Below are positions 12,664 through 60,920 of a stretch of 64,000 bases of DNA, piece by piece (the first letter of the stretch is position 1; every line of letters starts with the position of its first letter). A model generated the notes under the pieces. That model did no database searches and was not told the origin of the DNA. It saw only the letters and a list, made by a program, of their open reading frames with translations. The position numbers and the translations under genes are program-made. Origin of the DNA: a virus (lineage: Duplodnaviria > Heunggongvirae > Uroviricota > Caudoviricetes); IMG/VR virus record IMGVR_UViG_3300033148_004507; one strand, written 5' to 3'.

Positions 12664-12713
12664 GACCGCAAAACTATTTATACTCGGAACCCCTACGATG
12701 TGACGGTGATAAC
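12664..12713 (+). promoter_or_regulatory. recurring promoter/RBS cassette: GACCGCAAAACTATTTATACT...GTGACGGTGATAACATG
   Basis: BRE/TATA-like AAAACTATTTATA ~35 nt upstream of ATG; GGTGAT SD 4 nt before ATG; one of ~8 copies in the window. Confidence 0.6.
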
Positions 12714-12932
12714 ATGACAGAAAATGGAAATAAATGTGAAGAACGATGCCCAACTTGTAATGAACTTTGCGAGATTGCAGAGGACAACCATAAAGTCTGG
12801 GTTGAAAAATACGGCCATGCAAAAGGCAGAACTATGAAAGGCCATTATCATTGGAATGGGACAAAGTTACATGAATGGGTCACATTTCCAGGGTGTGAAA
12901 AGGTGAACCAACAATGCCAAGAAGAAAATTAA
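12714..12932 (+). CDS. zinc-ribbon mini-protein
   Basis: ATG at end of promoter cassette; CEERCPTCNELCE. Confidence 0.55.
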   Translation: MTENGNKCEERCPTCNELCEIAEDNHKVWVEKYGHAKGRTMKGHYHWNGTKLHEWVTFPGCEKVNQQCQEEN

Positions 12933-13120
12933 AGATAACTAAAAAAGAAGCTAAAATGCATGGCATCGACTATAATATTATTAATGGTTGCACTGCTTTT
13001 AGCCTCAAAGACGACACATGGGGTTGTAATCGTTGCTGTCAATTTTGTGGTTGTTATGAAGCAGATTACATAAACTATATGCATGAAACAAGCCAATTAC
13101 CAATGAAGGAGGGTAAATAA
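12914..13120 (+). CDS. Cys-rich mini-protein
   Basis: CNRCCQFCGC. Confidence 0.45.
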   Translation: MPRRKLKITKKEAKMHGIDYNIINGCTAFSLKDDTWGCNRCCQFCGCYEADYINYMHETSQLPMKEGK

Positions 13121-13229
13121 TGAGTTTTGCAGGGTATGGTGTACAACCAGAAGATTTCTGCTATTTATTCACACCGGATGAAGGGATGTATGAGGAGTTA
13201 AAATGAGTCGAGAATTGGTATACATCTGT

Positions 13230-14553
13230 GAGCTTGGTAAGGGTGAGTCAACGACCACACAGAACAGAAATGGTCTGGGGGCGAGTCTGAGCAATCAGAC
13301 TTGTGCGTTGATTAGGAGGCAATGAAAAGAATGAAAACCATGCAGAAGTTAGACGGGAGAGATACATACACACCTACGGATGCTCCACAAGTCCGTAGCA
13401 ACTGTGATTCTGTGATTAAACATGACTGCGAGGTAGGTCAAGTGTTACAGAGTTTGAAAACCCCGTCTAACAACTCCGATGTGGACTTACTCCAGCATAC
13501 AGGAGGGCATAATGCCACTATGTATGCATATGTTATAAATAAGAATGGAAAACCACTGATGCCCTGCAAACCTGCCAAAGCAAGGCATCTATTGAAGCAA
13601 GGTAGAGCCAAAGTAATCAACAGGAAGCCATTTACAATCCGACTATTATGGGATTGTGAAGATAATGTGCAACCGATTACGCTAGGCATCGATGCAGGCT
13701 ATAGCAAAGTTGGTTTCAGTGCCGTGTCTGAGAGTAAGGAATTGATGTCTGGGGAGCTAACATTACGAAAAGGCATCAATAAACTCATCGAGCAGAAAAG
13801 CAACTATAGAAGAACAAGACGGAATAAACTTTGGCATCGCCCACCGAGATTCCTGAACAGAGCCAAACCAAAAGGTCGCCTACCTCCGAGCATCCAACAT
13901 AAGCTCGACAGCCATATTAGGCTTGTCGAACAAATGAAAGCAATCCTGCCGATAACAAATGTTATTGTCGAGGTTGCGAATTTTGACATCCAGAAGATAA
14001 AGAATCCAGACATTAAAGGAGTCGAATACCAACAAGGGGAGCAGATGGGCTTTTGGAATGTAAAACCTGTCATGAAGAGCATCATGCGGGTATTGATATA
14101 ATCTCAGCAGTGGCAATCAAGAACTTCAAGCCAGAAACCTTTATGACGGTGGTTAATTGGAAGCTTACAGAACTATTAAATTGTGAGCATACCTTTGGCT
14201 ACATCACGAAGCATAATAGGATTAAGCAAGGTCTTGCAAAGAGTCATGTAAATGATGCGTTTATAATTGCAAGAGGTCATAGTCAGGGGCGATGCAAATA
14301 TTATGAAGTCAATCAAACGAGGAGAAATAATAGAAGCATACAATTGAATCGAAAAGGCTATAAACCATCTATCAGAAGAAAAAGATATAAGCTCCAATCC
14401 AATGACTTAATTAGAGATTCACAAAACAACACTGTTCTGAGAGCAAAGGGTGTATGCTCATATGGGCGGTCAATAAAATTGGAAGATGGGAGATATACAA
14501 ATGTTAAAAATATAAAATTAATATGTTATGGTAAAGGGATATGCTATATATGA
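13230..14553 (+). mobile_element. IS200/IS605-type iscB element (copy 2), left boundary approximate
   Basis: direct repeat of 6880..8339 (by-eye ~85% identity); preceded by a 200-nt noncoding stretch 13121..13321. Confidence 0.7.
13322..14553 (+). pseudogene. iscB: IscB copy 2, inactivated by ~139-bp out-of-frame deletion removing the N-terminal half of the HNH domain
   Basis: same PLMP/RuvC-I/bridge/RuvC-II as copy 1, then ...FWNV | KTCHEEHH...HVNDAFIIARG; CQHCKGK...QVHHIN segment absent; ORF split into 13322..14101 and 14053..14553 at the same TGGAATGT site as copy 1. Confidence 0.8.
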
Positions 14554-14632
14554 AAAAGACTAAAGTAGATAGAAATGACTGAATGGGAAGAGACTGGTGA
14601 TTTGAAGGTGGACAGATAAAGGAGGAATAAAT

Positions 14633-15052
14633 ATGGATGATTCAAATAATAAAAGTGAGTTAAGGGTTTCAGATAGGAAGTGGACAATTGTAGCCACATT
14701 ATTGGTGGTGATGTCATTGCTTATAATTAATTCATATTGGAATCCCAATCTGGAAGCGGAATACGAAGTGGAAATGGTCGAATATGAGCAAAAGCAGATT
14801 GAGATGGAAATAGAGTATGCAAATATAACCGATGCCTATGGTGAATATAGTTTTGAGGCAGTTACCTATAAGGAAATAATGGATGACGAATTGAATGTCA
14901 AGTCTTTACGTCTATTTATGCAATTGTTCGTGTGGATATTCATTGGTATATTTCTTATTATGATTGCCTATAAACAAGACATGTACTTGATTGATGATTG
15001 CGATGATGAGTTTGGCTTTGAAGATGACGATGATAGGTTGGTGGGGCCTTGA
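14633..15052 (+). CDS. membrane protein with acidic C-terminus
   Basis: two hydrophobic helices (WTIVATLLVVMSLLII; LFVWIFIGIFLIMIAY), DDCDDEFGFEDDDD tail. Confidence 0.5.
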   Translation: MDDSNNKSELRVSDRKWTIVATLLVVMSLLIINSYWNPNLEAEYEVEMVEYEQKQIEMEIEYANITDAYGEYSFEAVTYKEIMDDELNVKSLRLFMQLFVWIFIGIFLIMIAYKQDMYLIDDCDDEFGFEDDDDRLVGP

Positions 15053-15300
15053 AAGGTGTTGAAGCTGTAGTCAAATCCATGCTCTATGCACTGGTTGGTG
15101 TTATGGTAGTTATGGTTGTTATGTCATTCTACTTCATGTATTGCGCATATCGGGCATTTCAAATCGGAACCGATATTGGCAACTTTGTTGGTGGGGCATT
15201 GTTGGTACTGTCTGGGGCCATATTACTTGGGTCAATTGGAATCCAGCAATTTGTGTTCCCGTTGTTGGAGATTAAAACAGATGGTGGTGAAAAAGAATGA
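15049..15300 (+). CDS. small membrane protein
   Basis: 83 aa, 2-3 hydrophobic helices. Confidence 0.5.
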   Translation: MKGVEAVVKSMLYALVGVMVVMVVMSFYFMYCAYRAFQIGTDIGNFVGGALLVLSGAILLGSIGIQQFVFPLLEIKTDGGEKE

Positions 15301-15773
15301 AAATCCCAGATAGAATAAACTATAGTGCCTTGAACTTTCCGATATGTAATTTCGTGGTTCTTGAGGAGGCTGAGAGGTTGATAATACCTGATTACCAGAG
15401 AGATTATATCTGGTCTGATACTCAGAAGGGGTTGTTGATAGATAGCATCTTTAAAAGCATACCGATTGGCAATATATTCCTTAACGAGAGGGGTGGCAGT
15501 CCAGCCTATGAAATTATTGATGGTCAGCAAAGACTTACTACACTATTTAAGTTCATGAATGATGAGTTTGCTTACCAGGATGTGTACTACAGTGAATTGC
15601 CAGATAAGTACACTGCGAGGATAAGTCATTTCGTAGTCCAGACTTATATCACTTACTACACAGATGTTAAGGACATCCTCAGATTGTATTATGTATTGAA
15701 TTGGGCAGGGACACAACATAATGTGGAGGAGATGATTAAGCTTAAGAGGCAGGCGGGTGAAGAGGATGGATGA
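15297..15773 (+). CDS. DUF262 (ParB-like, GmrSD N-terminal-type) domain protein, stand-alone
   Basis: IIPDYQRDYIWSDTQKGLLIDSIFKSIPIGNIFL...EIIDGQQRLTTLFKF: canonical PxYQRxYxW and DGQQR motifs; no DUF1524/HNH nuclease partner domain. Confidence 0.8.
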   Translation: MKIPDRINYSALNFPICNFVVLEEAERLIIPDYQRDYIWSDTQKGLLIDSIFKSIPIGNIFLNERGGSPAYEIIDGQQRLTTLFKFMNDEFAYQDVYYSELPDKYTARISHFVVQTYITYYTDVKDILRLYYVLNWAGTQHNVEEMIKLKRQAGEEDG

Positions 15774-15920
15774 AAAAAGCTATGATGCGACAATTAGAAT
15801 TGTAAACGAAAAGTGCGGTGAAGTCTTTAATTGCCAGGGTGTTACAGGGATATTAGGATTTAACAGAGAGGCTGGAAGCTGTGGAACGTTACATTGATAG
15901 GGATGGCTGACTGAGATTAT

Positions 15921-15970
15921 GATAGCAAAACTATTTATACTGAGAACGCATACAAAGTGACGGTGATAAC
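15921..15970 (+). promoter_or_regulatory. promoter/RBS cassette copy (GATAGCAAAACTATTTATACT...GTGACGGTGATAACATG)
   Basis: same cassette as 12664, 24856, 36584, 42045. Confidence 0.6.
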
Positions 15971-16096
15971 ATGGCAGGAAACAACGAAACAATAAACATT
16001 GGCGACCTTCCCGTAATAATTACGGAGGAAGAGGCTGAAGCAATAATCGGACTGTATGAGCATCATATTAAGGTAGTTATGTCTGGAGGAGTTTGA
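15971..16096 (+). CDS. 41-aa leader ORF (not in ORF track)
   Basis: ATG 15971 at end of promoter cassette; MAGNNETINIGDLPVIITEEEAEAIIGLYEHHIKVVMSGGV; TGA 16094-16096 overlaps ATG 16097. Confidence 0.45.
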   Translation: MAGNNETINIGDLPVIITEEEAEAIIGLYEHHIKVVMSGGV

Positions 16097-24709: not shown

Positions 24710-24777
24710 GCCCACAGACGGGGAACAGACTGTTGTGTTATCACCAAATTTCGTAACTTTTTGTTCAGTCTGTGGGC
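24710..24777 (+). terminator. inverted repeat GCCCACAGAC(GGGGAACAGACTG)...CAGTCTGTGGGC; terminator or regulator site
   Basis: 10-bp perfect IR, extendable through second CAGAC copy, 48-nt spacer containing TTTTTGTT; sits between gene-block end 24653 and promoter 24856. Confidence 0.4.
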
Positions 24778-24855
24778 AACCCATCATAGGCACGATGTAA
24801 TTATCCCAAATTCCATCCCATCTGTGCCTATGCGGGTTCCTTTCACTTTGTTTTT

Positions 24856-24905
24856 GACAGCAAAACTATATATACTTTGGATGTATACTATGTGATGGTG
24901 ATAAC
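24856..24905 (+). promoter_or_regulatory. promoter/RBS cassette copy (GACAGCAAAACTATATATACT...GTGATGGTGATAACATG)
   Basis: directly precedes ATG 24906 (MTGDK...). Confidence 0.6.
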
Positions 24906-26213
24906 ATGACAGGCGACAAATTATTTGAATCGGAAAAGACGGAGAACGGATACCTAATCCGCTTCCCGAAGCACAAGCTGGATGACTTTGTGGAAGGTAT
25001 AACTCCTATCCAGAACAAGGCCAAGAAGCTAGGTCTTGGCGAGATAACTTACGAAGTTATTGAAACTTATGATGTAGGCACACCAATTACCATACAGTCT
25101 TGGAAGAGAGATTATGAGATGACTGTCAGGGTCAGGTGGGTTGCAGTTAAAATTATAGGGGAACCGCCAGTTCTTGACGGTTGGAAATTCATCGCATCAA
25201 TGGATGCTTCTGATGAGTTTGGAGTTCTTATTAGGAAGATACCTGACGAGGATGAGGTCATACCTGTCAAATATCTTAAGGACGGTGGAAATCCACGACT
25301 CTGTGAGCAATGCAACAGGAACACGCCACGAAGCAAGTTATACATCGTCAAGAACGTTGAAACAGGGGAATGGAGGCAGGTTGGTTCGACCTGCTTGAAA
25401 GACTTCATAGGTAATGTCACCCCATCCGAGATTGCACAATACTGGCATCTCTTGTATTATGTGGCAGAGGGTTCAAGCGATATGTTTGGTGGCGGGGGAT
25501 TTAGGGAATACGCCAAGCACAATCTTGTGGAATATCTGACTTATGCAAATATGCAGATTCGAAATCACGGATACTTATCAGTCACAAGAGCCGAGGAGCT
25601 TTCAGATATGCTTCGCAGAATCTCGCCGACCTGCGAAATCATTGATTCCATATTACAAACGATACACACAAAGGATAATAATTATGACCATTCAGTGAAT
25701 CCAATCACGATGGACGACTATGTGAAAGCAGAGCAGGTCATCGATTGGGCAATGGAGCTTTCAGATGTGGTGTGCGAGAAGAGTACCTACATGGCAACAA
25801 TTAGGACGATTGCTCAATCTGGCAAAGTACCTTCAAGGCACATGGGGTATGTGGCATCTATGATAAATTCACACACCAAACACCTCTCAGACATGAAGAG
25901 GCTGGACAAAGTTTACGAATATCTGGATGTGGAAGTTGGTGTCAGGTTCGACATTGATGGGGCCGAGGTCATTGGAATCAGGTCATTTGAAAGTCGGTTC
26001 GGAACAACATTCATCTACGACATGGCAAAGGGGAATAACCTCTTTGTCTGGTTCACTGGCAATGAAGGCATGATGGCTCTGGGGGACACGGTATCATTCA
26101 GGGCGACATTGAAGAAGTTCGATGACTATAAGGGCTTGAAGCAGACTGTTGTGACCAGGGCCAAGGTCACGGTGACAAAGGAGGCATTCAAGCTATCTGG
26201 GGGTGAGTCTTAA
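24906..26213 (+). CDS. hypothetical protein, N-terminus MTGDK shared with 36635 and 42095 genes
   Basis: 435 aa; CEQCNRN...GSTC zinc-binding pair. Confidence 0.55.
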   Translation: MTGDKLFESEKTENGYLIRFPKHKLDDFVEGITPIQNKAKKLGLGEITYEVIETYDVGTPITIQSWKRDYEMTVRVRWVAVKIIGEPPVLDGWKFIASMDASDEFGVLIRKIPDEDEVIPVKYLKDGGNPRLCEQCNRNTPRSKLYIVKNVETGEWRQVGSTCLKDFIGNVTPSEIAQYWHLLYYVAEGSSDMFGGGGFREYAKHNLVEYLTYANMQIRNHGYLSVTRAEELSDMLRRISPTCEIIDSILQTIHTKDNNYDHSVNPITMDDYVKAEQVIDWAMELSDVVCEKSTYMATIRTIAQSGKVPSRHMGYVASMINSHTKHLSDMKRLDKVYEYLDVEVGVRFDIDGAEVIGIRSFESRFGTTFIYDMAKGNNLFVWFTGNEGMMALGDTVSFRATLKKFDDYKGLKQTVVTRAKVTVTKEAFKLSGGES

Positions 26214-30355: not shown

Positions 30356-30775
30356 TTATTTTCCGCCCTTGTTTGTGACGATTCTCTTTTTTATGTATGG
30401 ACAGCCCCTATTGATGATATACAAATCATCTCTTCCCCAATAATCATTTTTACATTGAGTATTATACAAAGGTTTGTGTGTGAAAATCAAAAAATTTTCA
30501 ACATCTCTAATTAATAATTTGGTGATTCTTTGATAATCTGATTTCTCAATATACCCTAACCAGAAAGATAATCCTTGTGTATTCATATCAAAATCTCGTA
30601 GGTTATTTTTAATTTCAGCAACCACATCCATGTGGTAGGCAATACCCATGTAGATTATTCCTCGCCCTCTTTGAAAAGCATAGAAATATGCATCCTCATA
30701 TTCTCTCAATTTACTATATGGTACTTTCACCCAATTAAGTGTCATTCCCTTTTTTGGTTTCACTTTTATTTTCAT
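30356..30775 (-). CDS. hypothetical protein (minus strand)
   Basis: start chosen at MKIKVKPKK preceded (in minus sense) by GGTGAGAGGTGG SD; track ORF extends to 30871. Confidence 0.45.
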   Translation of the reverse strand: MKIKVKPKKGMTLNWVKVPYSKLREYEDAYFYAFQRGRGIIYMGIAYHMDVVAEIKNNLRDFDMNTQGLSFWLGYIEKSDYQRITKLLIRDVENFLIFTHKPLYNTQCKNDYWGRDDLYIINRGCPYIKKRIVTNKGGK

Positions 30776-30921
30776 ATTCCACCTCTCACCGATATATGGA
30801 TGAGAAGCGAAAGGCATTTGGGGAAAGAGAATGGCTTGAATAATTAACAATAATAATTCTCCGCCCCTCACTTCTCAACATATGCATAATTTCGCACAAT
30901 ATAAATGTTTTTGACCATTTA

Positions 30922-31680
30922 TTAAGGCAACTCTTTTCTACAGCTCCCACAGAAATTGTAACCATTTGGATTGGTATCTCCGCAATACGGGCAAAACTTG
31001 TCTATCTTATCGTCTCCAGGTACTAAATTATCATTGTCGTCTATCTTATCATCATCGTACTCTTCCTCTGGTAATCCATATTTTGCAATAAGCTCTGCAC
31101 CAACTGAAACAAGAATTCCACCTATGACACATAGCACCCATCCATATCTTAAGCCTAGTATACTCATTGCTTCGCCAAATGAAATGTCATTAGAAAGAGA
31201 AACAATGTAGAATCCATGTATTAAAACACCTTGGGAAATCAAAGCGATTAAGAATCCTCCAAGATATAGCAATCTACACACATAATATTCTCTTACGGAT
31301 AGAACAATCATGAATAGTATGGCACATAATCCTGCAATCATTGGTAAAAAGTCAAGATACCAGATGTCAAAATAAAGACCAATATTCCATCCAGTAATCC
31401 CACCATAAATTCCATTATAAAATGGCTCAGACATCCCTCTAAAGAATAATATGATTCCAAAGAAGCCAACAGCAGTGCCTATCACAAGAAAAATTGGAGT
31501 TTCTCTATCACCAAAAACTATAGTCTCTTCTTTGACAGACTCATCAGATACAATCATTAAAAACCCAAATATACATAAAAGAAATGATATAGGAAAACTA
31601 ATGTCTACCCACCAGAATAAAAGGCATATTACTGCTAATATAAACATGAATGACCCGATTATACCCAGTTTAATCCTCAT
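30922..31680 (-). CDS. polytopic membrane protein with C-terminal zinc ribbon
   Basis: 6-7 TM helices; C-term FCPYCGDTNPNGYNFCGSCRK; GGTGA SD upstream. Confidence 0.6.
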   Translation of the reverse strand: MRIKLGIIGSFMFILAVICLLFWWVDISFPISFLLCIFGFLMIVSDESVKEETIVFGDRETPIFLVIGTAVGFFGIILFFRGMSEPFYNGIYGGITGWNIGLYFDIWYLDFLPMIAGLCAILFMIVLSVREYYVCRLLYLGGFLIALISQGVLIHGFYIVSLSNDISFGEAMSILGLRYGWVLCVIGGILVSVGAELIAKYGLPEEEYDDDKIDDNDNLVPGDDKIDKFCPYCGDTNPNGYNFCGSCRKELP

Positions 31681-31694
31681 CTCTTCACCGTAAC

Positions 31695-32324
31695 CTAGTC
31701 ATCAAACCTCTTATTTCGTTTATTGACTGCATATAATGGAACTATAATTGCAGGTAATATCGCCATAGTACACACTTCCCCACCAGTATCTTCTCCACCA
31801 GTATCTCCACTAGAACCTCCTCCTGTGTCATCTCCTGTAATAACCACAGTATCATCACCGTTATCCACGACAGAATCCTTGATTATCTGGATAGTGTAGG
31901 TGTATTCCTTAGTGGTTGCAATATCCCATTCAGACCACACACCTTCTTCTGATGCAATTACTTCGATTGTAGCTATATGACTTCCAATATCTACTTGGAA
32001 TTCACTAGGCACAGTTACTTCCCAGGAGAAAGTATAGCTATTCCCTGCTTCTACAATAACACTCGTTTGACTGGATGTATAGCCAGTCATAGCTAAATTC
32101 CAATCAAAAAATAGGTGTACTCTCTCAACCCTCAATGATTCAGAATATGTGTTTGTCAGTACGTATTTAAAAGTATACGCATAATTATTCTTGATACCCT
32201 CTGTTGGCTCTAGTGTTCCAGATACTTCCCATTTATCATATCCCTCAACTGGAATGGCTATTATAATCATTCCTAGGATTATTAGCCAAACTACAATGAA
32301 TCCATATTTTCCCACGATTCTCAC
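31695..32324 (-). CDS. secreted/surface-anchored protein (signal peptide, Gly/Asp/Thr linker, C-terminal TM)
   Basis: N-term FIVVWLIILGMIIIAIPV, DTGGGSSGDTGGEDTGG linker, MAILPAIIVPLYAV + NKRNKR tail; GTG start. Confidence 0.55.
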   Translation of the reverse strand: MRIVGKYGFIVVWLIILGMIIIAIPVEGYDKWEVSGTLEPTEGIKNNYAYTFKYVLTNTYSESLRVERVHLFFDWNLAMTGYTSSQTSVIVEAGNSYTFSWEVTVPSEFQVDIGSHIATIEVIASEEGVWSEWDIATTKEYTYTIQIIKDSVVDNGDDTVVITGDDTGGGSSGDTGGEDTGGEVCTMAILPAIIVPLYAVNKRNKRFDD

Positions 32325-32348
32325 CTAATCGCCTAATGCTGGAAAACT

Positions 32349-32372
32349 ATTTTAAAGTATCCATACGGTACG
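32349..32372 (+). promoter_or_regulatory. promoter-cassette variant GGAAAACTATTTTAAAGTAT in divergent intergenic region
   Basis: resembles GCAAAACTATTTATACT; ~45 nt upstream of GTG/ATG 32415-32420. Confidence 0.4.
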
Positions 32373-32414
32373 CATACCACAGAATACCACATATAGAGAA
32401 AGGACAATCTGGAA

Positions 32415-32606
32415 GTGATGCCAAAGGAATCAAAACGCTATAAATACAAAACAGTAACACTTCCAGAGCCACTCATGGAAGAAATCAAACAATTCATTGA
32501 TGACCATCCCGAACTAGGATATGGTAGTGTTACTGAGTTCATTAAAGAGGCATCTCGTGGTCAAATGAAAGAGTATTATCTTATTATGAAGATGAAGATG
32601 AAGTAG
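32415..32606 (+). CDS. ribbon-helix-helix (CopG/Arc-like) DNA-binding protein
   Basis: KRYKYKTVTLPEPLMEEIKQFIDDHPELGYGSVTEFIKEA = beta-strand + two helices typical of RHH regulators. Confidence 0.55.
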   Translation: MMPKESKRYKYKTVTLPEPLMEEIKQFIDDHPELGYGSVTEFIKEASRGQMKEYYLIMKMKMK

Positions 32607-32655
32607 TTTTGACCACAAAATCGATATATAGTCGTAATCGTTTTAGCAAAGCTAT

Positions 32656-33417
32656 ATGGCTGAAGAAAATGAAGAATGGGAAGAAATGAATAATAAAATA
32701 AAAAGAAAATTAAGTAAAGAAAATGAAGCATTAAGAAGAGAGAATAATAATTTAACTAGAGAGAACATGCAATTGAAAAAAGATAATATTGCTTACAGAG
32801 GGCAGTATAATCTTATTGATGATAGATTTTATGAAATTAATAGTCCAGAGTTGGAAGAATCAGTTATTCATAAAATTTCTGAAGAATTGATAGATGCTTT
32901 AATAAAATGCGATAAATTAGATAATGATGAATATCTATCAAGATATATGCAGATGTATATGGATAAGCCAGATGGGGATTATTATGTGTTCAATTGGGAT
33001 AAGGCAAAGAAACCAGAAAGGTTACATCGGGGAGCTTATAAATTTCTTTTATCACAACTGCCAGAGCAATTACATTTCAAGCAAGAGAGAGAATCTTCAT
33101 TGTCACATTTAGGTAAAGGTGAAAGTCCGAATGAAAGTGACATAATAGGAATTTTAACTTATTTAGATGTAGATATTGCAAAGGGAGAAAGGGGAGCATG
33201 GAATGATTTTTGGATTGATATTATATATGCAAATATAGACAATAAATTAGGATTAAAACAATCTGATATGGTTCAGAAAAGCAAAGATAATTCTCATTCA
33301 TGGGGAAAAGAACCTATTAGGCTCGCTGTAAAAACCTTAAAAGAAAATGGCCTGTTGAAGAAAAAAGGAAGTCGTTATATTATTGATAAAACAAATCTAA
33401 AGATAATCTGTAAATAA
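32656..33417 (+). CDS. hypothetical protein with N-terminal coiled coil
   Basis: 253 aa; KENEALRRENNNLTRENMQLKKDN. Confidence 0.5.
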   Translation: MAEENEEWEEMNNKIKRKLSKENEALRRENNNLTRENMQLKKDNIAYRGQYNLIDDRFYEINSPELEESVIHKISEELIDALIKCDKLDNDEYLSRYMQMYMDKPDGDYYVFNWDKAKKPERLHRGAYKFLLSQLPEQLHFKQERESSLSHLGKGESPNESDIIGILTYLDVDIAKGERGAWNDFWIDIIYANIDNKLGLKQSDMVQKSKDNSHSWGKEPIRLAVKTLKENGLLKKKGSRYIIDKTNLKIICK

Positions 33418-33419
33418 GT

Positions 33420-35200
33420 TGGACTCCTCTTCTGAAGTTGGAAAAAAGTTGTTATTTTGTTGGAAAAAAGTTGTTTTTTACACCATAATTTTGAATTATA
33501 TGGAAATAATCTGTAAATTCACATCCAGTTTAAATGCTATAAGTTTCATAAGATTATATCGCAGTCAAGAAGATTGGTGGCCTCTCGGTGAATGTCGTAT
33601 ACTATATCGAGGCTTCTTGACTGCTCTAAATCATTAAGGTGATTCCTGTAAACGAAGATGATGATGATTATGACAGCAAAACCATAAACGGCAAATGGCT
33701 ACGAAAATGTTATGCTTTACCTATTCAAACTCAACGAAAGTTGACAGATTACCAGAATGACTTAAATAATGTCAATCTGCATAGAATTAAAGTGAGGCCA
33801 GATTATTTGCGTAACCTGACCTCTGGAGCTGATAAGATGTGTTCAACAAAGTTATCAACCCCGAAGAAAGCTATGGATGAAGAGACAAATAAAAGTTTCC
33901 ATACGTTAGTCTATATGAATCCAACAGGCTTCGCTGAGGGGGAAAGTGAGCCAGGTATAAGAATGACAGTTGTAGGGAGTGAATACCCTACCTTTTATCA
34001 AAGTTTTTGGACTGAGCCAGACTTTAGTAACCCGACCAATGACAATCCGATGAGAGCATCCGAATTCTTGAGTAAACTGAATTTGGATAACGTATTAGAT
34101 GCCATTGGTCAGAAATATGGAAATAAAAAATGGCATTTCAGGTATCCTCCTGAAGCCATGATTAAGGCTTTGGTGTTCAAGTACATCAAAGGTTTGAGGC
34201 ACGATACACGCCTAGTAAGATACTTAAAAGCCCATCCCGAAGAGGCGAAATTACTAGGATTCATTGAAGTAAAAGGTGAATTGAAAATACCGAGCCAACA
34301 GACATTCAATCATTTTGTCTTGGCGAGGTTGAGGAATGAAGGATTATATGACATATTTGATAGCCTTGTATTAGAACTCAAGGATAAGATGAGTATGCTC
34401 GGTCTGCAACTGGGTAAAACTGTGTCTGTTGATTCAACGCCTTTATCGAGTATGAAGAATGACAAAGATGCTAAATACAATCCGCATTATGACATTAAAG
34501 GATATAAAGTACATAATGTGATAGATGCAGATTTCTTCCTTCCACTTGCCTTAAATTTCACTACTGCGATAGATGGGGATTCGCCACAGTATCTCCCATT
34601 GTTAGACAGATTACACACGATGGGATTTGATTTTGGGACGATTCTTGCAGATGGAGCTTATGCTTCTCTTGAACATTTTGCAATTGTACATCGGTATTAC
34701 AGAGCCAAAGCCATTTTCAAATTGAAGAAAAATAATCGTATAAGAAAAGAAGGAACATTGAAAGGAATTAAGAAGAGATATGAATCATTATGGAAAAAAG
34801 ATGGATACAAGCCAGATGCAGGAATAGATTACATGCTAGCATTCCTTTATTTTCAAGGTGATATTAAAGCGGTTGGAAGCTATTATCATAACAAGCATTT
34901 TGTGGACTGGACAAATAATTACGATGAGAAAAAGAAGGAATTTAATCAAAGGGCAGGAATAGAGGCGTTTCATGGGCATTTAAAGTATCAGATGAACCTT
35001 GAGATATTTCTTGATAAGAAAGGCATTAGAAACGCTGAAATGCACGTTCAATTGACGTATATCTCATTACTGTGCGTGGCTCTGTGCAGAGTTCAGCATG
35101 GAGTTACTGAGGGTCTTGTGAATGTGAAGTGTCTTGTTTAGGCACTTCTTCTTTATTTTTTTAAAAAATGCAAAGATTAAAGAATAGATTAAGTATTTCC
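33420..35200 (+). mobile_element. IS4/IS5-superfamily insertion sequence (boundaries approximate, terminal IRs not confidently identified)
   Basis: single DDE transposase ORF; upstream tandem TTGGAAAAAAGTTGTT x2 at 33447-33485. Confidence 0.5.
33639..35141 (+). CDS. DDE transposase, IS4/IS5 superfamily
   Basis: N-term FRYPPEAMIKALVFKYIKGL; catalytic VSVDSTP (D), ILADGAYAS (D), NQRAGIEAFHGHLK (R-x3-E-x6-K). Confidence 0.8.
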   Translation: MIPVNEDDDDYDSKTINGKWLRKCYALPIQTQRKLTDYQNDLNNVNLHRIKVRPDYLRNLTSGADKMCSTKLSTPKKAMDEETNKSFHTLVYMNPTGFAEGESEPGIRMTVVGSEYPTFYQSFWTEPDFSNPTNDNPMRASEFLSKLNLDNVLDAIGQKYGNKKWHFRYPPEAMIKALVFKYIKGLRHDTRLVRYLKAHPEEAKLLGFIEVKGELKIPSQQTFNHFVLARLRNEGLYDIFDSLVLELKDKMSMLGLQLGKTVSVDSTPLSSMKNDKDAKYNPHYDIKGYKVHNVIDADFFLPLALNFTTAIDGDSPQYLPLLDRLHTMGFDFGTILADGAYASLEHFAIVHRYYRAKAIFKLKKNNRIRKEGTLKGIKKRYESLWKKDGYKPDAGIDYMLAFLYFQGDIKAVGSYYHNKHFVDWTNNYDEKKKEFNQRAGIEAFHGHLKYQMNLEIFLDKKGIRNAEMHVQLTYISLLCVALCRVQHGVTEGLVNVKCLV

Positions 35201-35208
35201 TAATTTCT

Positions 35209-35724
35209 ATGTGCGAAAGAAAGAAAAGGCAATTATTAAATTTAATAGAAGTTCTTCTCGAAGATATTGAGAAAAATAAAGATGAATGGAACTTACCTAC
35301 CGATGATTCAGATACGCGTGAAGTGGAAGCATGGAATAGTGTACTCGCAATCCAAACAAAACAGCTTAATGATATTGTGAATAACGTTAGAAAGATGTAT
35401 GAAAATGATGAAACTTATGAATTATTAGGAGGGGTCAGGGTGCAGGAGATGATGTCATTTACACAACTATATCTCCCTGCACGAAAACTCTATGCTTTTG
35501 TGAAACATGATATTGAATATGAAGAAAACATTGAATTAAAATGGTTAAAAAATAGATATGAAGAATTAGGCATGTGGCAGAAGAAATTAGAGAAAGACAT
35601 CAAAGGTGTGCCAAATCGAGAAGAATGGGATGATTTTACACAGATGATGGAAGCCACCCTTGAGAATATCCAGACAAAAATTAATGAATTGGAAGAACTA
35701 TCTAAGAGAGGACTTGATTTGTAG
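35209..35724 (+). CDS. hypothetical coiled-coil protein
   Basis: 171 aa, helical/acidic. Confidence 0.45.
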   Translation: MCERKKRQLLNLIEVLLEDIEKNKDEWNLPTDDSDTREVEAWNSVLAIQTKQLNDIVNNVRKMYENDETYELLGGVRVQEMMSFTQLYLPARKLYAFVKHDIEYEENIELKWLKNRYEELGMWQKKLEKDIKGVPNREEWDDFTQMMEATLENIQTKINELEELSKRGLDL

Positions 35725-35744
35725 TGTAATTGAAGGTTACTAAT

Positions 35745-35865
35745 TAGCACTGAAATTTCAAGACAAATTCATAAGTTTTATATAGGTTACTAATTAGAGT
35801 CAAATCTATATTGAAATTGATACCTTTTTATAGGCTACTAATTAAAATCTACTAATTGGTAACCC
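35745..35865 (+). promoter_or_regulatory. four CTAATTAG-family sites (GGTTACTAATTAG x2, GGCTACTAATTAA, CTACTAATTGGTAACC) with TTTTATATA boxes
   Basis: CTAATTAG is itself an 8-bp palindrome; sites at 35750, 35790, 35838, 35852; upstream of phosphatase gene. Confidence 0.5.
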
Positions 35866-35958
35866 TCGTCGTTGATGACTATATTGGAAGGTCAATGATA
35901 TATCTAAGATTAGATAGGGTTGACACAGGGGAAGTTGAGTATGTGAGGGTGAATTAAT

Positions 35959-36345
35959 ATGGCAGATGAAATAATACACAATCTCTGGCTAGGAGATTTG
36001 GATGATGCCAACGAGGTTTGCAGGGCCGAGTATGACCATGTAATCAACGTGCTTGGAATCATAGAGCCAGATGACGAGACAGGAAAGGTGGATGTGGATG
36101 TTGTAAATGCAATATCATTCTTAATAAAGAAGATGCTGGACGTGGACAAGAGAATACTTGTGCATTGCGGTGCTGGCATGGAGAGAAGCCCATTGGCTGT
36201 TGCCTGGTATCTCTGGAAGCATGAGGATTTTAAGAGCCTGGACGATGCGTACAGGTTCATAAAATCCAAGAGGCAGTTAATTATGCATTGTGGTCATTGG
36301 GTATCGTGGGGGGATGTGCATGGCAAAATGTTGTCCGAACTGTAA
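35959..36345 (+). CDS. dual-specificity protein phosphatase
   Basis: VHCGAGMERSPLAVAWYL = HCx5R(S) P-loop; N-term NLWLGDL like DUSP. Confidence 0.8.
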   Translation: MADEIIHNLWLGDLDDANEVCRAEYDHVINVLGIIEPDDETGKVDVDVVNAISFLIKKMLDVDKRILVHCGAGMERSPLAVAWYLWKHEDFKSLDDAYRFIKSKRQLIMHCGHWVSWGDVHGKMLSEL

Positions 36346-36583: not shown

Positions 36584-36634
36584 GATAGCAAAACCATTAT
36601 ATACTGTTGGAGCATACTAAGTGACGGTGATAAC
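36584..36634 (+). promoter_or_regulatory. promoter/RBS cassette copy
   Basis: GATAGCAAAACCATTATATACT...GTGACGGTGATAACATG; 60 nt from ATACTAAGTGACGG through GGAGCAGGC identical to 42045 copy. Confidence 0.6.
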
Positions 36635-36856
36635 ATGACAGGCGACAAGGATTCAACTGGAAATGGAGCAGGCAAGGCGAAGGCAATAAACCATGAAACA
36701 CAGAGAAAGGGCGACCCGAAATTCAAAGTATCTTTTTATGTACATGATGCAGGTGAGGACATGTTGAGAGAATGGATTGCTTCACTACTTGATAAAGAAT
36801 CATCTTTTAGACCAGGGGATACGATGGACAGAATAGAGATAGAAGAGGTGGTCTAA
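36635..36856 (+). CDS. hypothetical protein MTGDKDSTGNGAG..., ends EEVV
   Basis: ATG 36635 at cassette end (track ORF 36536 is an upstream extension). Confidence 0.55.
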   Translation: MTGDKDSTGNGAGKAKAINHETQRKGDPKFKVSFYVHDAGEDMLREWIASLLDKESSFRPGDTMDRIEIEEVV

Positions 36857-42044: not shown

Positions 42045-42094
42045 GACAGCATAACTATATATACTGCTGATGTATACTAAGTGACGGTGATAAC
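42045..42094 (+). promoter_or_regulatory. promoter/RBS cassette copy
   Basis: GACAGCATAACTATATATACT...GTGACGGTGATAACATG. Confidence 0.6.
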
Positions 42095-43033
42095 ATGACA
42101 GGCGACAAGGATTCAACTGGAAATGGAGCAGGCGAAGGGATAGAAATCAACCCTATAGACATAGTGCCAGGGAAGGCATTCGAGATAATCTCGATAGGCT
42201 GTACTATGGCTACAGTGGACGGCAGTCTTATTGAATTGAGGGTTGGGACGATAATAAAGGCATTGAATAAGACGGTATACCGCATCGTTCACAATATATC
42301 GTGGCCGTCATTTAAGATAAAGGCAACGATGCCTGATGGGAATGTAATATATGGTATGTATTTTGTAAACTATACATCCCCATTTTCAAGATTCTTAAAA
42401 GAGATAGACGACCCAGACTTTGACGATTCGGGGCGTGTTAAATGCCATATATGCTCTCTCATTCCATTACCAGAGCTTGCCTACAAAGTCAAGGGCGGGA
42501 TTGTATGTAATGAATGTATGCACAAGCATACAGAATACGATTATGATAAGAAGGTGGAAATGCTCATCATTCCAGAGCTTAAAGTCAACAAAGAAGCATT
42601 CAATAAAGATGGGGAATACATATTTTCGACTGTGCATGAGCATGCCAATCACTTTGTTGAAGAGTACAAGGGAATTGAGATTCACCTTAAGAGGGATTTC
42701 CTGCCAGAGCAGAGAGTTCGAGGATACGTGGGCGTAAAGGGCAGTTGCAACGTTATGCCTGGTGCTGTTTGGTACAAGAGCATCACGCAGATTAAAGAGG
42801 GTATAGACACCTTCTTGCAAGCTGGCGGTCTTACAGAACACTATGATAACAAGTATTTCTGGGACTTGACCCATAAGGAGTACGCTAAGTACGAAATATG
42901 TGAGGGTTGTGGCAAGATGGTCTACAGAGACAGTCTGGGGCATATCAAAGAGGACATCACAACAGCAGTTCAGAAGAACGTGCATCACACAAAACACCTG
43001 GGTGAGCATAAATGCAAGGGGAAGGTGGCCTAA
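42095..43033 (+). CDS. Cys-rich protein, N-terminus MTGDKDSTGNGAG identical to 36635 gene
   Basis: 312 aa; CHICS...CNECMHKH, CEGCGK. Confidence 0.55.
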   Translation: MTGDKDSTGNGAGEGIEINPIDIVPGKAFEIISIGCTMATVDGSLIELRVGTIIKALNKTVYRIVHNISWPSFKIKATMPDGNVIYGMYFVNYTSPFSRFLKEIDDPDFDDSGRVKCHICSLIPLPELAYKVKGGIVCNECMHKHTEYDYDKKVEMLIIPELKVNKEAFNKDGEYIFSTVHEHANHFVEEYKGIEIHLKRDFLPEQRVRGYVGVKGSCNVMPGAVWYKSITQIKEGIDTFLQAGGLTEHYDNKYFWDLTHKEYAKYEICEGCGKMVYRDSLGHIKEDITTAVQKNVHHTKHLGEHKCKGKVA

Positions 43034-46660: not shown

Positions 46661-46712
46661 GTCTGACACAATTAAGACAGCATAATGTTTATAAGGAAAG
46701 AGGTGATTAGGT

Positions 46713-46973
46713 ATGATTATGTGTATAGAGGACGTAGATTGGGAAAGGCAGGCGAAGCATTTCTTAGAGAAGCATGGTTGGGAATTTGACGAGCATGGAT
46801 TGGGAACGCATGAGTTGTTTCCACTGGCCGAGGACTTCAGTATGGGTCGCTACGTCAGATTTTGTAAATCAATGTATGAGGGGGTTTGGAATTCATACAG
46901 GGCATACATTCATGGCACAGTCATATTAAACGAAATTGAAGAGGTGGACTCAGATGGCGACAGTGATAATTGA
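46713..46973 (+). CDS. hypothetical protein
   Basis: 86 aa. Confidence 0.45.
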   Translation: MIMCIEDVDWERQAKHFLEKHGWEFDEHGLGTHELFPLAEDFSMGRYVRFCKSMYEGVWNSYRAYIHGTVILNEIEEVDSDGDSDN

Positions 46974-55579: not shown

Positions 55580-55581
55580 TC

Positions 55582-56028: not shown

Positions 56029-56030
56029 TC

Positions 56031-57362: not shown

Positions 57363-57420
57363 GATAGCAAAAATTATATATGCTAAAAATGAATATAGGG
57401 TGACGGTGGTGACAATTACT
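57363..57420 (+). promoter_or_regulatory. degenerate promoter-cassette copy (GATAGCAAAAATTATATATGCT...GTGACGGTGGTGACAAT)
   Basis: lacks the ATG fusion; ~80 nt upstream of ATG 57499. Confidence 0.4.
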
Positions 57421-57498: not shown

Positions 57499-57786
57499 AT
57501 GAACAAATCAAAACTTGAGGAAAATCTAACAGTCGATATGGGGTATACGAAGTACCTGAAAATCCCAATGCAAATCAAGAAGCATTTTGGGAACCCTGTT
57601 TCTGATGTAAATCCTGATTGGGATTTCGAAGAGATGCCTGATGGTAAATTGAAAATCATCTACATATTTGACAAGTCAGATTTCACCAAAGTTCAAAAGG
57701 CCAAAACGAAGGCCAAGTCCAAGAAGTCCCCGCCAAAGAAGAAAACAAAGAAGCAGGGGACTAAAGATGGGAAAAAAGATAATTGA
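57499..57786 (+). CDS. small protein with strongly basic Lys-rich tail
   Basis: KAKTKAKSKKSPPKKKTKKQGTKDGKKDN; candidate nucleic-acid binder. Confidence 0.5.
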   Translation: MNKSKLEENLTVDMGYTKYLKIPMQIKKHFGNPVSDVNPDWDFEEMPDGKLKIIYIFDKSDFTKVQKAKTKAKSKKSPPKKKTKKQGTKDGKKDN

Positions 57787-58591: not shown

Positions 58592-58692
58592 TACGAAAAT
58601 GCAGGGATAATCAAATCCCCATCCCTGCACTAAATAATATAAGTCATGAAACCTATACCCCTACCACGACATGAAACCAATGAGGAATATAT

Positions 58693-59544
58693 ATGACACA
58701 AGAGAATTTAAATAAGCAAAAGCGAATCGCACTTTTATTCATGGAAAATCCATTGACAAAATTACGGTTTTCAGATGTAAAAAGAATGACTGGATTTAAA
58801 GACAGTGCAATTAAATCATCATTGAGGAGACTATCTAACAAATTAATAATTATGAGGATTCAAGTAGGAAAAAACCATTCTTATGCTTTAAGGGATATGC
58901 ATAAAGCCAAAAGATACATAAATGGGGCTGAAGGTGGGGAGATAGTTGAAAAACAGGGTATGGATTTTTTGGATGGTATTATAAGGCAAGAAAAGCATCA
59001 TAGGTTTTTTCAAATTAAATTAACAGATGAAGAATGGAAAAAGAATGAAATATATTACACAAAACCTAGTGAAAACGACAGAGCTAAAAATTCTATACAT
59101 GAATTAGGCAGTTTTAAAATAATCATAAGCAGAAAGAGTTTAAATGGGACTATATATTTACTAGCTGAAGATTGGGAATCTGAATTGAAGTCCTTATATC
59201 CGAGACTTTATTTCGATGTGAAAAGATTAGAAGAATCGGAATCTGGTCATTTAGGTGTATCTATTGATATGGATGCATGGTCGAAGATTAGATTAAACGC
59301 AGACGATTTAAGGGTAGTATTTGCGAAATCACATTTCTGGAAAGAGATAGATGCCGAAGGTAGCGAGATTTTAGTGAATTCTTTTTTACAAAACATTATA
59401 AAGACATCTTTTGATAAAACTACTACAGAGGTTGTGATTGCAAAATCATTAGAAAGGTTAAATCAGACATTATCAGAGCAGAATTTGTTACTCAATCAAC
59501 TACTTACAAGTATACGTGATTTATCGGAAAAGGAGGATAAATGA
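58693..59544 (+). CDS. wHTH protein, paralog A
   Basis: N-term wHTH-like; central block HHRFFQIKLTDEEW...LNGTIYLL..DW...GHLGVSID...HFWKEID..G.E..VNS.LQNI.KTS shared with 59612 gene. Confidence 0.55.
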   Translation: MTQENLNKQKRIALLFMENPLTKLRFSDVKRMTGFKDSAIKSSLRRLSNKLIIMRIQVGKNHSYALRDMHKAKRYINGAEGGEIVEKQGMDFLDGIIRQEKHHRFFQIKLTDEEWKKNEIYYTKPSENDRAKNSIHELGSFKIIISRKSLNGTIYLLAEDWESELKSLYPRLYFDVKRLEESESGHLGVSIDMDAWSKIRLNADDLRVVFAKSHFWKEIDAEGSEILVNSFLQNIIKTSFDKTTTEVVIAKSLERLNQTLSEQNLLLNQLLTSIRDLSEKEDK

Positions 59545-59557
59545 AGAGTATATCGGT

Positions 59558-59580
59558 GGTTCCCGCATGATACGGGAACC
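59558..59580 (+). terminator. hairpin GGTTCCCG-catgata-CGGGAACC
   Basis: perfect 8-bp IR between the two paralog genes. Confidence 0.4.
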
Positions 59581-59611
59581 ATACAACGAGGGAACTATGG
59601 AGTAATGTTTG

Positions 59612-60613
59612 ATGGCAGATGATGATGTAAAAGATAGGTATAGGAGGCTAGTAGCTATATTCCTAAATTTTCCAACAGATAGTTATCGCCAGAGAGATTT
59701 AATTAAGAACACAGGATTCCCCGATGGGACGATAAAATCATTTTGTCATAAATTTAAAAAGAAAGGAATTATAAGGGGCTTTAGACCAGAAGGCAAGAGA
59801 TATTTTAGATATATGCTAAAAGACCACGACTTAGCTTATAGATATTTGAAAGAGCCATCATTCAACTGTACGAATAAGCGAGGGTATACACCTAGCCCAC
59901 ACCCTAGAGATTATTTGGCGACCATGATTCCGCAGGAAGAGCATCACAAATTTTATCAAATCAAACTTACAGAGCAAGAGTTTGCGAGGACGGAGCATTT
60001 ATTCTCTAAATCAAAACCGAATGATAGGGGGAAGAATAGAACTTATGAGGCGAGAAGTTATAAAATTAACGTTAGCCAGAACACATTAAATGGTGTAATC
60101 TATCTTCTTGACACAGATTGGAAGCAGAGGTTGATGGACACCTACCCAGACCTATGCGATGCTCTTTGTAAAAAGATTGAATTAGAGAATGGTCATCTCG
60201 GCGTATCAATTGATGCTGAGAGTTGGGCAGGCTTTAAATTATCTGATGAATTCTTGACTACAATCTTTGCCTCTTCTCATTATTGGAAGGAGCTTGATTT
60301 CGAGGGCAAAGAAAAGTATGTTAATTCAATGTTGCAAAACATTGTTAAGACCTCGCAAGAAAAGACTACTTTTGAGGCTACAATAAGTATATTGATGAAA
60401 GAGCTTTTAACGAGAACAGACAGGAGCAATGAGCAGTCTGTTGGTATGCTGGCTATCCTTCAACAACTGAGTGACAGGCTCGATAAAGGTAATGACCTAC
60501 AAGAGAGGTCGATTGTGATATTGGAAACTCTTGTGAATGGTAAGAAGAAAGAGGACGAGCCAGACAAGCCAGTTAAGGAACTGGATGAGCATGATTTGAT
60601 AATGTTTGCTTGA
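59612..60613 (+). CDS. wHTH protein, paralog B
   Basis: EHHKFYQIKLTEQEF...LNGVIYLL.TDW...GHLGVSID...HYWKELD.EGKEKYVNSMLQNIVKTS. Confidence 0.55.
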   Translation: MADDDVKDRYRRLVAIFLNFPTDSYRQRDLIKNTGFPDGTIKSFCHKFKKKGIIRGFRPEGKRYFRYMLKDHDLAYRYLKEPSFNCTNKRGYTPSPHPRDYLATMIPQEEHHKFYQIKLTEQEFARTEHLFSKSKPNDRGKNRTYEARSYKINVSQNTLNGVIYLLDTDWKQRLMDTYPDLCDALCKKIELENGHLGVSIDAESWAGFKLSDEFLTTIFASSHYWKELDFEGKEKYVNSMLQNIVKTSQEKTTFEATISILMKELLTRTDRSNEQSVGMLAILQQLSDRLDKGNDLQERSIVILETLVNGKKKEDEPDKPVKELDEHDLIMFA

Positions 60614-60637
60614 AATTGATTATTACTCTATTTCAAT

Positions 60638-60755
60638 ACACTGGCTCTATATTTATGTACAACTAATTAATGGAATATTGAATTAGTTGTACATAAAATT
60701 AGAAATTCAAGCAATTACCTGTACAACCAATTAATCTAAGGTCAAGAGCCAGTGT
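60638..60755 (+). promoter_or_regulatory. nested palindromic array: ACACTGGCTCT ...[TGTACAACTAATTAATGG / AATTAGTTGTACA / TGTACAACCAATTAATC]... AGAGCCAGTGT
   Basis: 11-bp outer IR (60638-60648 / 60745-60755) enclosing a 13-bp IR of the CTAATT family; followed by A-rich iteron-like AAAAAGTCA x2, AAAAAACAGA/AAAAAATCAGA. Confidence 0.5.
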
Positions 60756-60897
60756 TAATAAAAAGTCAAAAAACAGAATAAAAAATCAGAATTGGGAATA
60801 AAAAGTCACAAATTAATTTAAGGGCAACGTTCTTAACGATGGTTTGGCTGTGTGCCACGTCTAGCATACATTATGCATACAACGTTAAACACATTAG

Positions 60898-60920
60898 GAC
60901 AGCAAAAACATTTATATACA
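60898..60920 (+). promoter_or_regulatory. promoter-cassette-like GACAGCAAAAACATTTATATAC without attached ORF
   Basis: same BRE/TATA-like core as the recurring cassette; nearest ORF start 61084 (~160 nt away). Confidence 0.4.

Follow-up and report, generated by a model that had tools for sequence, protein, structure and literature searches.

A repeated cassette with the anatomy of an archaeal promoter heads blocks of genes in a mobile element at least 126 kb long

The cassette and its copies

The virus record IMGVR_UViG_3300033148_004507 includes a 64,000-nucleotide (nt) stretch of DNA, called the window here, that belongs to an element of at least 126 kb. The same proteins are encoded on contigs of 42.5, 84, and 126 kb (JGI 3300033141, 3300033149, and 3300033153), and these sister contigs are 98.7 to 100% identical to the window. 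Genes lie nearly all on the plus strand, mostly overlap by 4 nt, and are in most cases preceded by Shine-Dalgarno-like sequences of the AGGAGGTGAT family. Nearly all of the proteins lack a family assignment, and the matches that were obtained are to PKD repeats, two IscB/RRXRR proteins, RlaP, GmrSD_N, an RNA ligase, Band 7, an insertion sequence (IS) transposase, a phosphatase, and NADAR. Within this array, copies of a short, promoter-like repeat, the cassette, occupy the rare true gaps, and the first genes behind them head multigene runs.

Site inspection and a repeat finder (family D5) give the cassette a layout of GAYAGCAWAAC-TATWTATACT-N9-TAC-N3-GTGAYGGTGATAAC-ATG, or about 53 bases. There are five intact cassettes (12664, 15921, 24856, 36584, and 42045), all on the plus strand, and the ATG of every one opens an open reading frame (ORF), the products being 72, 41, 435, 73, and 312 amino acids (aa) long. 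With up to three mismatches allowed, the upstream half, GAYAGCAAAACTATTTATACT, has four matches (12664, 15921, 24856, and 42045) versus 0.01 expected. The downstream half, TAYTAAGTGACGGTGATAACATG, has five matches (12694, 15951, 24886, 36615, and 42075) versus 0.00 expected. The cassette at 36584 carries one extra base in the TATA region, which is the sole reason for its absence from the upstream-half matches. In addition, the five copies score 73 to 88 bits against a position matrix made from them, compared with -0.8 for the next site and -8.4 for the best of 30 shuffles.

Conservation among the intact copies is organized in blocks. In pairwise comparisons, identity is 9-11/11 in GAYAGCAWAAC, 7-10/10 in the TATA box, 3/3 in TAC, and 13-14/14 in GTGAYGGTGATAAC; the N9 spacer has 1-6/9 and codons 1 to 5 have 8-15/15. 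Identity in codons 6 to 13 is at the random level, with the exception of one pair (24/24). The best-conserved contiguous block is GTGAYGGTGATAAC-ATG, and ATGRCAGR is common to all five copies. An A-rich GCAWAAC resembling a B recognition element (BRE) adjoins the TATA box in every copy. The TATA box, which in archaea is an 8-bp A/T-rich element (TTTAWATA-like), reads TATTTATA, TATATATA, or ATTATATA in the five full copies, and TATA-like octamers are found in the other five copies that can be aligned. We interpret this block-wise conservation as the footprint of selection on separate blocks and not as that of a uniformly young repeat.

The upstream half belongs to a wider family. At least five further sites have this half only. 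They include 46676, 57444, 60898, a weak match at 32611, and, beyond the window end, one at about 69567. The 10-mer GAYAGCAWAA is found 10 times on the plus strand and 0 times on the minus strand, versus 0.87 expected. Eight of these 10 sites are intergenic and have an A/T octamer (the TATA box) 0 to 2 nt later, which the sites at 9514 and 33672 do not. These eight comprise four of the intact copies, as exact matches, together with 46676, 57363, 57444, and 60898; the fifth intact copy, 12664, is off by one base. A 16-nt matrix of the upstream box yields ten sites above 19 bits, all on the coding strand, against a shuffle maximum of 16.9. Ten sites could also be brought together in a multiple alignment over the upstream half. 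Its invariant columns in the upstream box are T(-4), GA, GC, and A. Parts of the TATA box are also invariant, as are, in 10/10 copies, T30, T37, and G38, that is, a T-G and the T eight bases before it. The BRE/TATA-like half is the part common to all ten copies, where it is paired with five different leaders.

A first-pass annotation of the window had described a cassette with at least eight copies. The repeat is real and far above chance, but its members are five intact copies, a decayed one, and no fewer than five sites with the upstream half only. Of the six full copies listed in that annotation, the one at 57363 is not intact. It reads GGTGGTGACAATT, in which the Shine-Dalgarno sequence is altered to GGTGGT and ATG to ATT; it stops after remnants of N-terminal codons and opens no ORF, and despite this decay it can be aligned through the region of the first codons. 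Among three sites listed as degenerate, 60898 keeps the upstream half, whereas 3389 and 32349 are weak BRE/TATA-like look-alikes. The upstream-half sites at 46676, 57444, 32611 (weak), and L044:17050 are additions to the earlier list, and the gap between the halves, given there as N~18, is 9 nt. The copies and the features that flank them are collected in Table 1.

Table 1. Cassettes, partial copies, and flanking features
Feature	Position	Strand	Description
Cassette 1, subfamily A	12664..12716	+	Heads 72-aa zinc-ribbon ORF 12714-12932; predicted transcription start 12702-12705
Cassette 2, subfamily A	15921..15973	+	Heads 41-aa ORF 15971-16096
Cassette 3, subfamily B	24856..24920	+	Includes first five codons (MTGDK) of 435-aa ORF 24906-26213
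Cassette 4, subfamily B	36584..36673	+	Includes 13 shared codons (MTGDKDSTGNGAG) of 73-aa ORF 36635-36856
Cassette 5, mosaic	42045..42133	+	Adjoins stop codon of upstream gene; heads 312-aa ORF 42095-43033
Decayed full-length cassette	57363..57417	+	Both halves kept, promoter half intact; without ORF
Promoter-half copy GACAGCAAAACC-TATTTAAA	57444..57501	+	Own leader GGTGGAG; heads ORF 57499-57786
Promoter-half copy GACAGCATAATG-TTTATAAG	46676..46721	+	Invariant T-G inside TGATTATG
Promoter-half copy GACAGCAAAAAC-ATTTATATA	60898..60944	+	TGATTATG would give 4-nt leader before 14-codon ORF
Weak relative GACCACAAAATC-GATATATA	32611..32658	+	TATA box 33 nt before ATG of ORF without Shine-Dalgarno sequence; leaderless geometry
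Upstream-half copy	L044:17050, ~69567	coding	Outside window, 5.6 kb past its end, same contig
Terminator-like hairpin with T-rich tail	12621..12656	+	Just upstream of cassette 1
Two strong hairpins (24710-24777, 24779-24837), then TTTGTTTTT	24710..24855	+	Directly before cassette 3; fold z = -3.4

Origin and history of the copies

The intact cassettes split into two subfamilies, {12664, 15921} and {24856, 36584, 42045}, according to their spacers, upstream flanks, and first codons. Within the second of these, 36614-36673 and 42074-42133 are identical at 60/60 positions, which take in 21 nt before the ATG and 13 codons. As already pointed out in the first-pass annotation, the ORFs at 36635 and 42095 both start with MTGDKDSTGNGAG, and the one at 24906 starts with MTGDK. 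The proteins behind the five copies have no similarity past about residue 19. Furthermore, the cassette at 42045 is a mosaic: its promoter half is nearest to that of 24856 (10/11, 10/10, and 6/9 in the spacer), and its leader and 13 codons are those of 36584. Between 36584 and 42045, the promoter half has diverged further, despite its constraint, than the identical 60-nt patch, which points to a recent conversion tract.

This pattern is better explained by duplication and gene conversion than by transposition. Similarity has ragged edges, which fall at different places in different pairs. Terminal inverted repeats were found at the ends of none of the five copies, although target-site duplications were not looked for. 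The first-pass annotation had proposed a mobile cassette, spread by recombination and carrying a leader peptide. Recombination is supported by the subfamilies, the mosaic at 42045, the 60-nt patch on otherwise unrelated proteins, and the codon remnants of the decayed copy at 57363. Mobility, if it means a unit that transposes, finds no support at the copy ends. The leader peptide was an over-reading, given that two genes share 13 codons, one more shares five, and the tracts have ragged edges; the shared N termini are best seen as probable edges of conversion tracts rather than as a functional leader peptide. The mosaic copies would record the exchange of promoters by gene conversion inside one element.

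The cassette as a putative promoter

Our results are, with fair probability, explained by a class of strong core promoters of archaeal type, each followed by a leader so short that it is essentially a ribosome-binding site. The copies, produced by duplication and conversion, would head blocks of genes in this virus or plasmid, a mobile element at least 126 kb long whose host is probably an archaeon. We infer promoter activity, strength, start site, and co-regulation from anatomy, which fits the promoter, Shine-Dalgarno sequence, and start codon of the first-pass annotation in that the conserved blocks line up with a BRE, a TATA box, and a possible initiator, with random spacers between them.

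In such a promoter, the host TATA-binding protein (TBP) would bind TATWTATA, and the host transcription factor B (TFB) would contact the A-rich GCAWAAC immediately upstream. RNA polymerase would start 20 to 23 nt past the TATA box, either at the invariant T-G (e.g., 12702) or at the Y-G three bases on (12705), so that the 5' end of the mRNA would be GACGGUGAUAAC-AUG or GGUGAUAAC-AUG. GGUGAU, five bases before the AUG, would then pair with the 3' end of 16S rRNA; GGTGAT is compatible with the archaeal Shine-Dalgarno motif GGDGRD. Further upstream, TTAnGAYAG would be bound by a regulator of one co-regulated promoter class. The copies would have been derived from each other by duplication and partly homogenized by gene conversion, with tracts that sometimes extend into the first 5 to 13 codons.

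Both candidate starts are pyrimidine/purine steps, T37-G38 in 10/10 copies and Y40-G41 in the full copies. A start at G38 gives a 12-nt leader and a TATA box at -27 to -20. With G41, which follows C/T, the leader is 9 nt, the TATA box is at -30 to -23, and the A of TAC is at -10. At 46676 and 60898, the ATG is 4 nt past the invariant T-G, as in leaderless archaeal mRNAs. The predicted transcript of 46676 would be nearly leaderless, with translation from the second ATG (46719).

A genome-wide map for Thermococcus onnurineus (PMC5316973) provides a reference for this anatomy. It has an 8-bp TATA box within -30 to -20 with an A-rich BRE just upstream, a pyrimidine at -1 followed by a purine at +1, an A/T element around -10, and short leaders with GGDGRD near the 5' end. 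The cassette resembles this generic promoter in its TATA octamer, adjoining A-rich BRE, pyrimidine/purine step at -1/+1, GGDGRD near the 5' end, and leaderless variants. However, generic promoters are not identical over 50 nt, nor do they carry a conserved box ahead of the BRE, and the distance from TATA box to start implied by the T-G is 3 nt shorter in our element than with the usual centre at -26/-27.

Evidence regarding the host comes from the element and from contigs that carry relatives of its genes. A tRNA-Gln(UUG) located about 20 kb past the window end (L059:4565-4635) has the acceptor stem A1-U72, with A73; bacterial tRNA-Gln has U1-A72, and M. thermautotrophicus, an archaeon, has A1-U72 (PMC2811023). 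The nearest relative of the IS transposase (60%) is from the same sample series, on a contig with an Sm-like (LSM) protein and a Haloferax (HVO)-type helix-turn-helix protein. Similarly, a 71% relative of IscB is found on a contig with the PolD large subunit (DP2), an ADP-dependent sugar kinase (ADP-PFK), and AFOR. Together, the tRNA-Gln and these contigs would favour an archaeal host, and the contigs hint at a euryarchaeal rather than a Sulfolobales one.

Several observations weigh against an archaeal promoter class. The only full-length homologues of the 24906 protein are in bacterial jumbo phages, and the named matches of IscB are from mixed lineages that include bacterial metagenome-assembled genomes (MAGs). 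The invariant G38 puts the TATA centre at -23.5, nearer than the usual -26/-27. For G41 the spacing is canonical, yet G41 is conserved in the full copies only. Either start leaves the Shine-Dalgarno sequence at the extreme 5' end, where its role in translation would be uncertain. No related element bearing the motif was found, the sole relative recovered (L057) being 11 kb without a copy. Finally, none of the scanned proteins of the 64-kb window, which is what the protein-family scans cover (about 94 kb of the element's at least 126 kb was seen as DNA), matches a DNA-binding regulator in Pfam, PHROG, or NCBIfam.

The TTAnGAYAG box deserves separate consideration. It is conserved upstream of the BRE, and upstream of the position contacted by TFB, and it is not part of a generic promoter. 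The element's other promoters, at 5637 and 10525 in the window and in the L059 region, do not have TTAnGAYAG/GAYAGC, and the box therefore marks one promoter class. It is likely to be where a regulator binds and places these promoters, as one class, under common control. A more ambitious version would make TTAnGAYAG the mark of a regulon under an element-encoded regulator, for example an immediate-early one with anti-defence genes. The whole unit would at the same time be a portable expression module that is copied before acquired genes by gene conversion and leaves chimeric N termini such as MTGDKDSTGNGAG. We put this version forward tentatively and consider it somewhat unlikely.

Alternatively, the element could be a bacterial jumbo phage, with TATACT as a -10-like element for a phage-modified or phage-encoded sigma factor and a leader of about 22 nt that contains the Shine-Dalgarno sequence. 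TATACT does resemble TATAAT, and some of the IscB relatives are from bacterial MAGs. Homologues of the 24906 protein are all at most 28% identical, with the full-length ones (about 25%) in Salicola phage SCTP-2 and KVP40-like Vibrio phages, and Pfam matches include the phage-typical families YoqU, Lar, DUF5131, RlaP, and RNA ligase. However, GAYAGC and TATACT are 9 nt apart, not 17, which does not satisfy the 16- to 18-nt spacing between -35 and -10 elements of sigma-70 promoters, and sigma-70-like sites are at background (41 found versus 36 expected). An 8-bp A/T box after an A-run is the archaeal pattern, and at 32611, 46676, and 60898 the ATG comes about 30 to 33 nt past the TATA start without a usable Shine-Dalgarno sequence, which is the archaeal leaderless geometry. 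The archaeal A1-U72 of the tRNA-Gln (PMC2811023) and the archaeal chromosome contigs of the IS and IscB relatives point in the same direction, and no sigma factor or RNA polymerase domain was found in the window. On these grounds a jumbo phage is improbable. We had also tried two related readings of the cassette: a sigma-70 promoter, rejected on the background level of sites, and a T4 late promoter or MotA box, for which sequence inspection found a likeness on the wrong strand only.

The cassettes could also be what survives of the 5' ends of an old family of paralogous genes, each duplicated along with its promoter and then diverged beyond recognition in its coding part, in which case they would have no dynamics of their own. 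The existence of subfamilies and the extension of similarity into the first codons (ATGRCAGR in all five) are what paralogues would leave behind. Yet the proteins downstream, of 41, 72, 73, 312, and 435 aa, are dissimilar past about residue 19. Co-divergence also predicts the opposite of what is seen at 36584/42045, where the promoter has diverged more than the leader and codons, and it does not account for a mosaic of two other copies at 42045 or for codon remnants without a gene at 57363. We give descent from such a family little credence.

A module acting at the level of RNA in long polycistronic transcripts, such as a processing site or a translation-restart or enhancer signal, would suit the fact that the best contiguous block is GTGAYGGTGATAAC-ATG and that the copies at 42045 and 57363 adjoin an upstream stop codon without a terminator. 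It is nonetheless very unlikely to replace an initiation site, since all ten copies share the BRE/TATA-like half in combination with five different leaders. Furthermore, the A/T octamer, the A-run, and the fixed distance to the invariant T-G have no obvious role in RNA; there is no evident conserved RNA structure, and the sole complement to the Shine-Dalgarno sequence (24737) is buried in a local hairpin. Least credible of all is a small non-autonomous mobile element, or an IS end with an outward promoter, inserting before genes: the unit is dispersed in many copies and the same DNA harbours active IS and IscB elements, but none of the five copies has inverted repeats at its ends (a search that did not extend to target-site duplications), every copy is oriented as its genes are, the edges are ragged and pair-dependent, no copy except the TATA-less box at 33672 is tied to a transposase, and near-identical contigs from three samples have no empty/filled site variants.

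To return to the archaeal promoter class, the first-pass annotation considered the cassette specific to this element. That holds as far as exact-pattern scans reach, with no cassette found elsewhere. As a positive control, the pattern finds four sites in the window itself. Each half was scanned in IMG/VR, which returned chance matches only, all of them without the other half. The JGI metagenome collection had 0 matches to the full pattern and six to the promoter half, none with the downstream half; because the pattern finds the window but nothing in that collection, the source samples are evidently not in it. Among 185,579 reference genomes there were 0 matches to the full pattern, the promoter half alone not having been scanned there. 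The element was followed directly for about 10 kb past the window end, and a further 21 kb of it was reached via the IscB paralogue. No copy was found in that 21 kb, in the mobile-element contigs L057 and L062, or in the host-like contigs L050 and L061, which at 37 kb in total are too short a sample to rule out that the motif came from the host. The related element L057 (from ENA and another JGI sample) has a PKD protein, an IscB that is 88% identical, and a 382-aa ORF equal in length to window ORF 3757-4905. Searches based on proteins found no relatives of the 24906 protein in IMG/VR and none of the IS transposase in the reference genomes.

Repeated promoters are familiar from bacteriophages. 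The T7 class II/III and T4 late (TATAAATA) promoters are contiguous motifs recognized by the phage's RNA polymerase or sigma factor. Like these, our cassette is present in many near-identical copies that define transcription units, as the phage motifs do for temporal classes in a large virus genome. Unlike them, its blocks match a host-type TBP/TFB architecture, and neither a polymerase nor a sigma gene was found in the window.

The nearest known counterpart is the virus-specific motif around a strong promoter in archaeal viruses. Bhoobalan-Chitty et al. (PMC11065993) described, for many archaeal viruses (SIRV2 and 56 others), a virus-specific regulatory sequence in several copies per genome. 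Its near-identical strong BRE/TATA core lies ahead of early or anti-defence genes that have no other relationship; these are small, poorly conserved single genes that are switched on directly after infection. Highly expressed host genes have the same core, and the flanks are proposed to bind cognate regulators encoded by the virus (Aca8-like; PMC11065993). The correspondence with our element includes a motif of 30 to 100 bp that recurs many times per genome, a core of TATA box and A/G-rich BRE, a conserved element-specific flank (here TTAnGAYAG), multiple copies, and downstream genes that are unrelated and tend to be small hypotheticals. On the other hand, our unit also holds the Shine-Dalgarno sequence, the ATG, and in places 5 to 13 codons; it heads long operons, not single genes, and the element, at 126 kb or more, is far larger. 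The kind of motif is thus already known, and what is different is the element, which is of a very different sort and much larger.

The motif supplies a first map of transcription units for an element of at least 126 kb whose genes are almost wholly of unknown function. Genes behind this promoter class are candidates for co-regulated, possibly early or anti-defence, functions, and the same logic for picking candidate genes has already been successful for Sulfolobales viruses. Once the host lineage is known, the cassette would offer it a compact and probably strong module of promoter and ribosome-binding site. The current understanding of archaeal transcription is unchanged by these findings.

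Neighbouring genes and other features of the element

Four of the five cassette first genes are without a family match, and the 435-aa one matches only phrog_2319 (function unknown). In an AlphaFold model of the 24906 protein (predicted local distance difference test score 71), a C-terminal domain at about 345-425 resembles oligonucleotide-binding-fold proteins that bind single-stranded DNA, with Foldseek E values of 2e-3 to 5e-2. After the 41-aa ORF 15971-16096 comes a 730-aa ORF and then an unbroken run of plus-strand genes for about 8.5 kb. A Toprim domain in the 730-aa protein was a guess that found no support in sequence searches of Pfam or PDB.

Surroundings differ from copy to copy. A hairpin with a T-rich tail precedes two of them, whereas 42045 and 57363 instead adjoin the upstream stop codon without a terminator. 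Upstream of cassette 3, 24730-24746 is complementary over 17 nt (88%) to its Shine-Dalgarno and start region, 24896-24912, at a distance of 149 nt. Long-range masking of the 24906 Shine-Dalgarno sequence in read-through transcripts is not predicted, as the 17-nt complement folds into a strong local hairpin, and the idea was set aside. For the 60898 copy, which according to the first-pass annotation may drive a noncoding RNA, the predicted transcript starts 4 nt before the 14-codon ORF and continues as a structured leader of 140 nt (z = -4.1) into the 61084 gene. The predicted leader at 60939-61095 is strongly structured, with the Shine-Dalgarno sequence of the 61084 gene under a hairpin. The region 60614-61095 includes a 280-nt noncoding stretch dense in TGTACAAC(T/C)AATTAAT in both orientations, along with a 23-nt inverted repeat and 20-nt direct repeats. 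This stretch, between two paralogous proteins (58693-59544 and 59609-60613; winged helix-turn-helix-like by eye, without a family match) and the promoter copy at 60898, looks like a possible operator or origin.

A low-GC island at 30356-36345 (0.34 to 0.36 versus about 0.42) holds the only minus-strand operon and is probably a later insertion. It encodes a 63-aa ORF (32415-32606) that is ribbon-helix-helix-like by eye, without a family match, an IS with DDE_Tnp_1 and DUF772 (33639-35141), and a dual-specificity phosphatase, and it has three to four copies of GG(T/C)TACTAATTA in 35727-35857. The window's top-scoring GAYAGC box, ATTATGACAGCAAAAC at 33672-33687 (25.5 bits), has no TATA box. What is probably the true start of the IS transposase comes about 135 nt later, and the IS may have disrupted or captured a promoter copy here.

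Three IscB-plus-HEARO (omega RNA) elements are present, at 6887-8339 and 13247-14553 in the window and at L059:9914-11362. The two window copies are about 84 to 88% identical and have split ORFs, while the third, in L059 outside the window, is intact at 453 aa. A 32-nt indel inside copy 1 distinguishes the window from a sister contig. The 21-kb L059 stretch has a lower GC content (0.35) and no GAYAGC promoters. The tRNA-Gln lies within a 790-nt AT-rich noncoding region, with a short ORF that weakly matches the integrase family some 1.8 kb upstream of it.

At the start of the window, 26-3382 encodes a surface-type protein of 1118 aa. It carries PKD repeats, with 11 matches to PKD_4 in Pfam, and a membrane anchor at the C terminus. 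Its version on a sister contig (3300033141) is 938 aa long, and the number of repeats therefore varies between populations. AAGCCACAGGAGGGG occurs at three successive gene junctions, 20011, 20418, and 20606, in paralogous small genes. Finally, a 27-nt repeat (9755, 19655, and 40265) is 96% identical in two zinc-ribbon genes, one of which has a weak DnaJ CXXCXGXG match, and 74% identical in a third zinc-ribbon gene.

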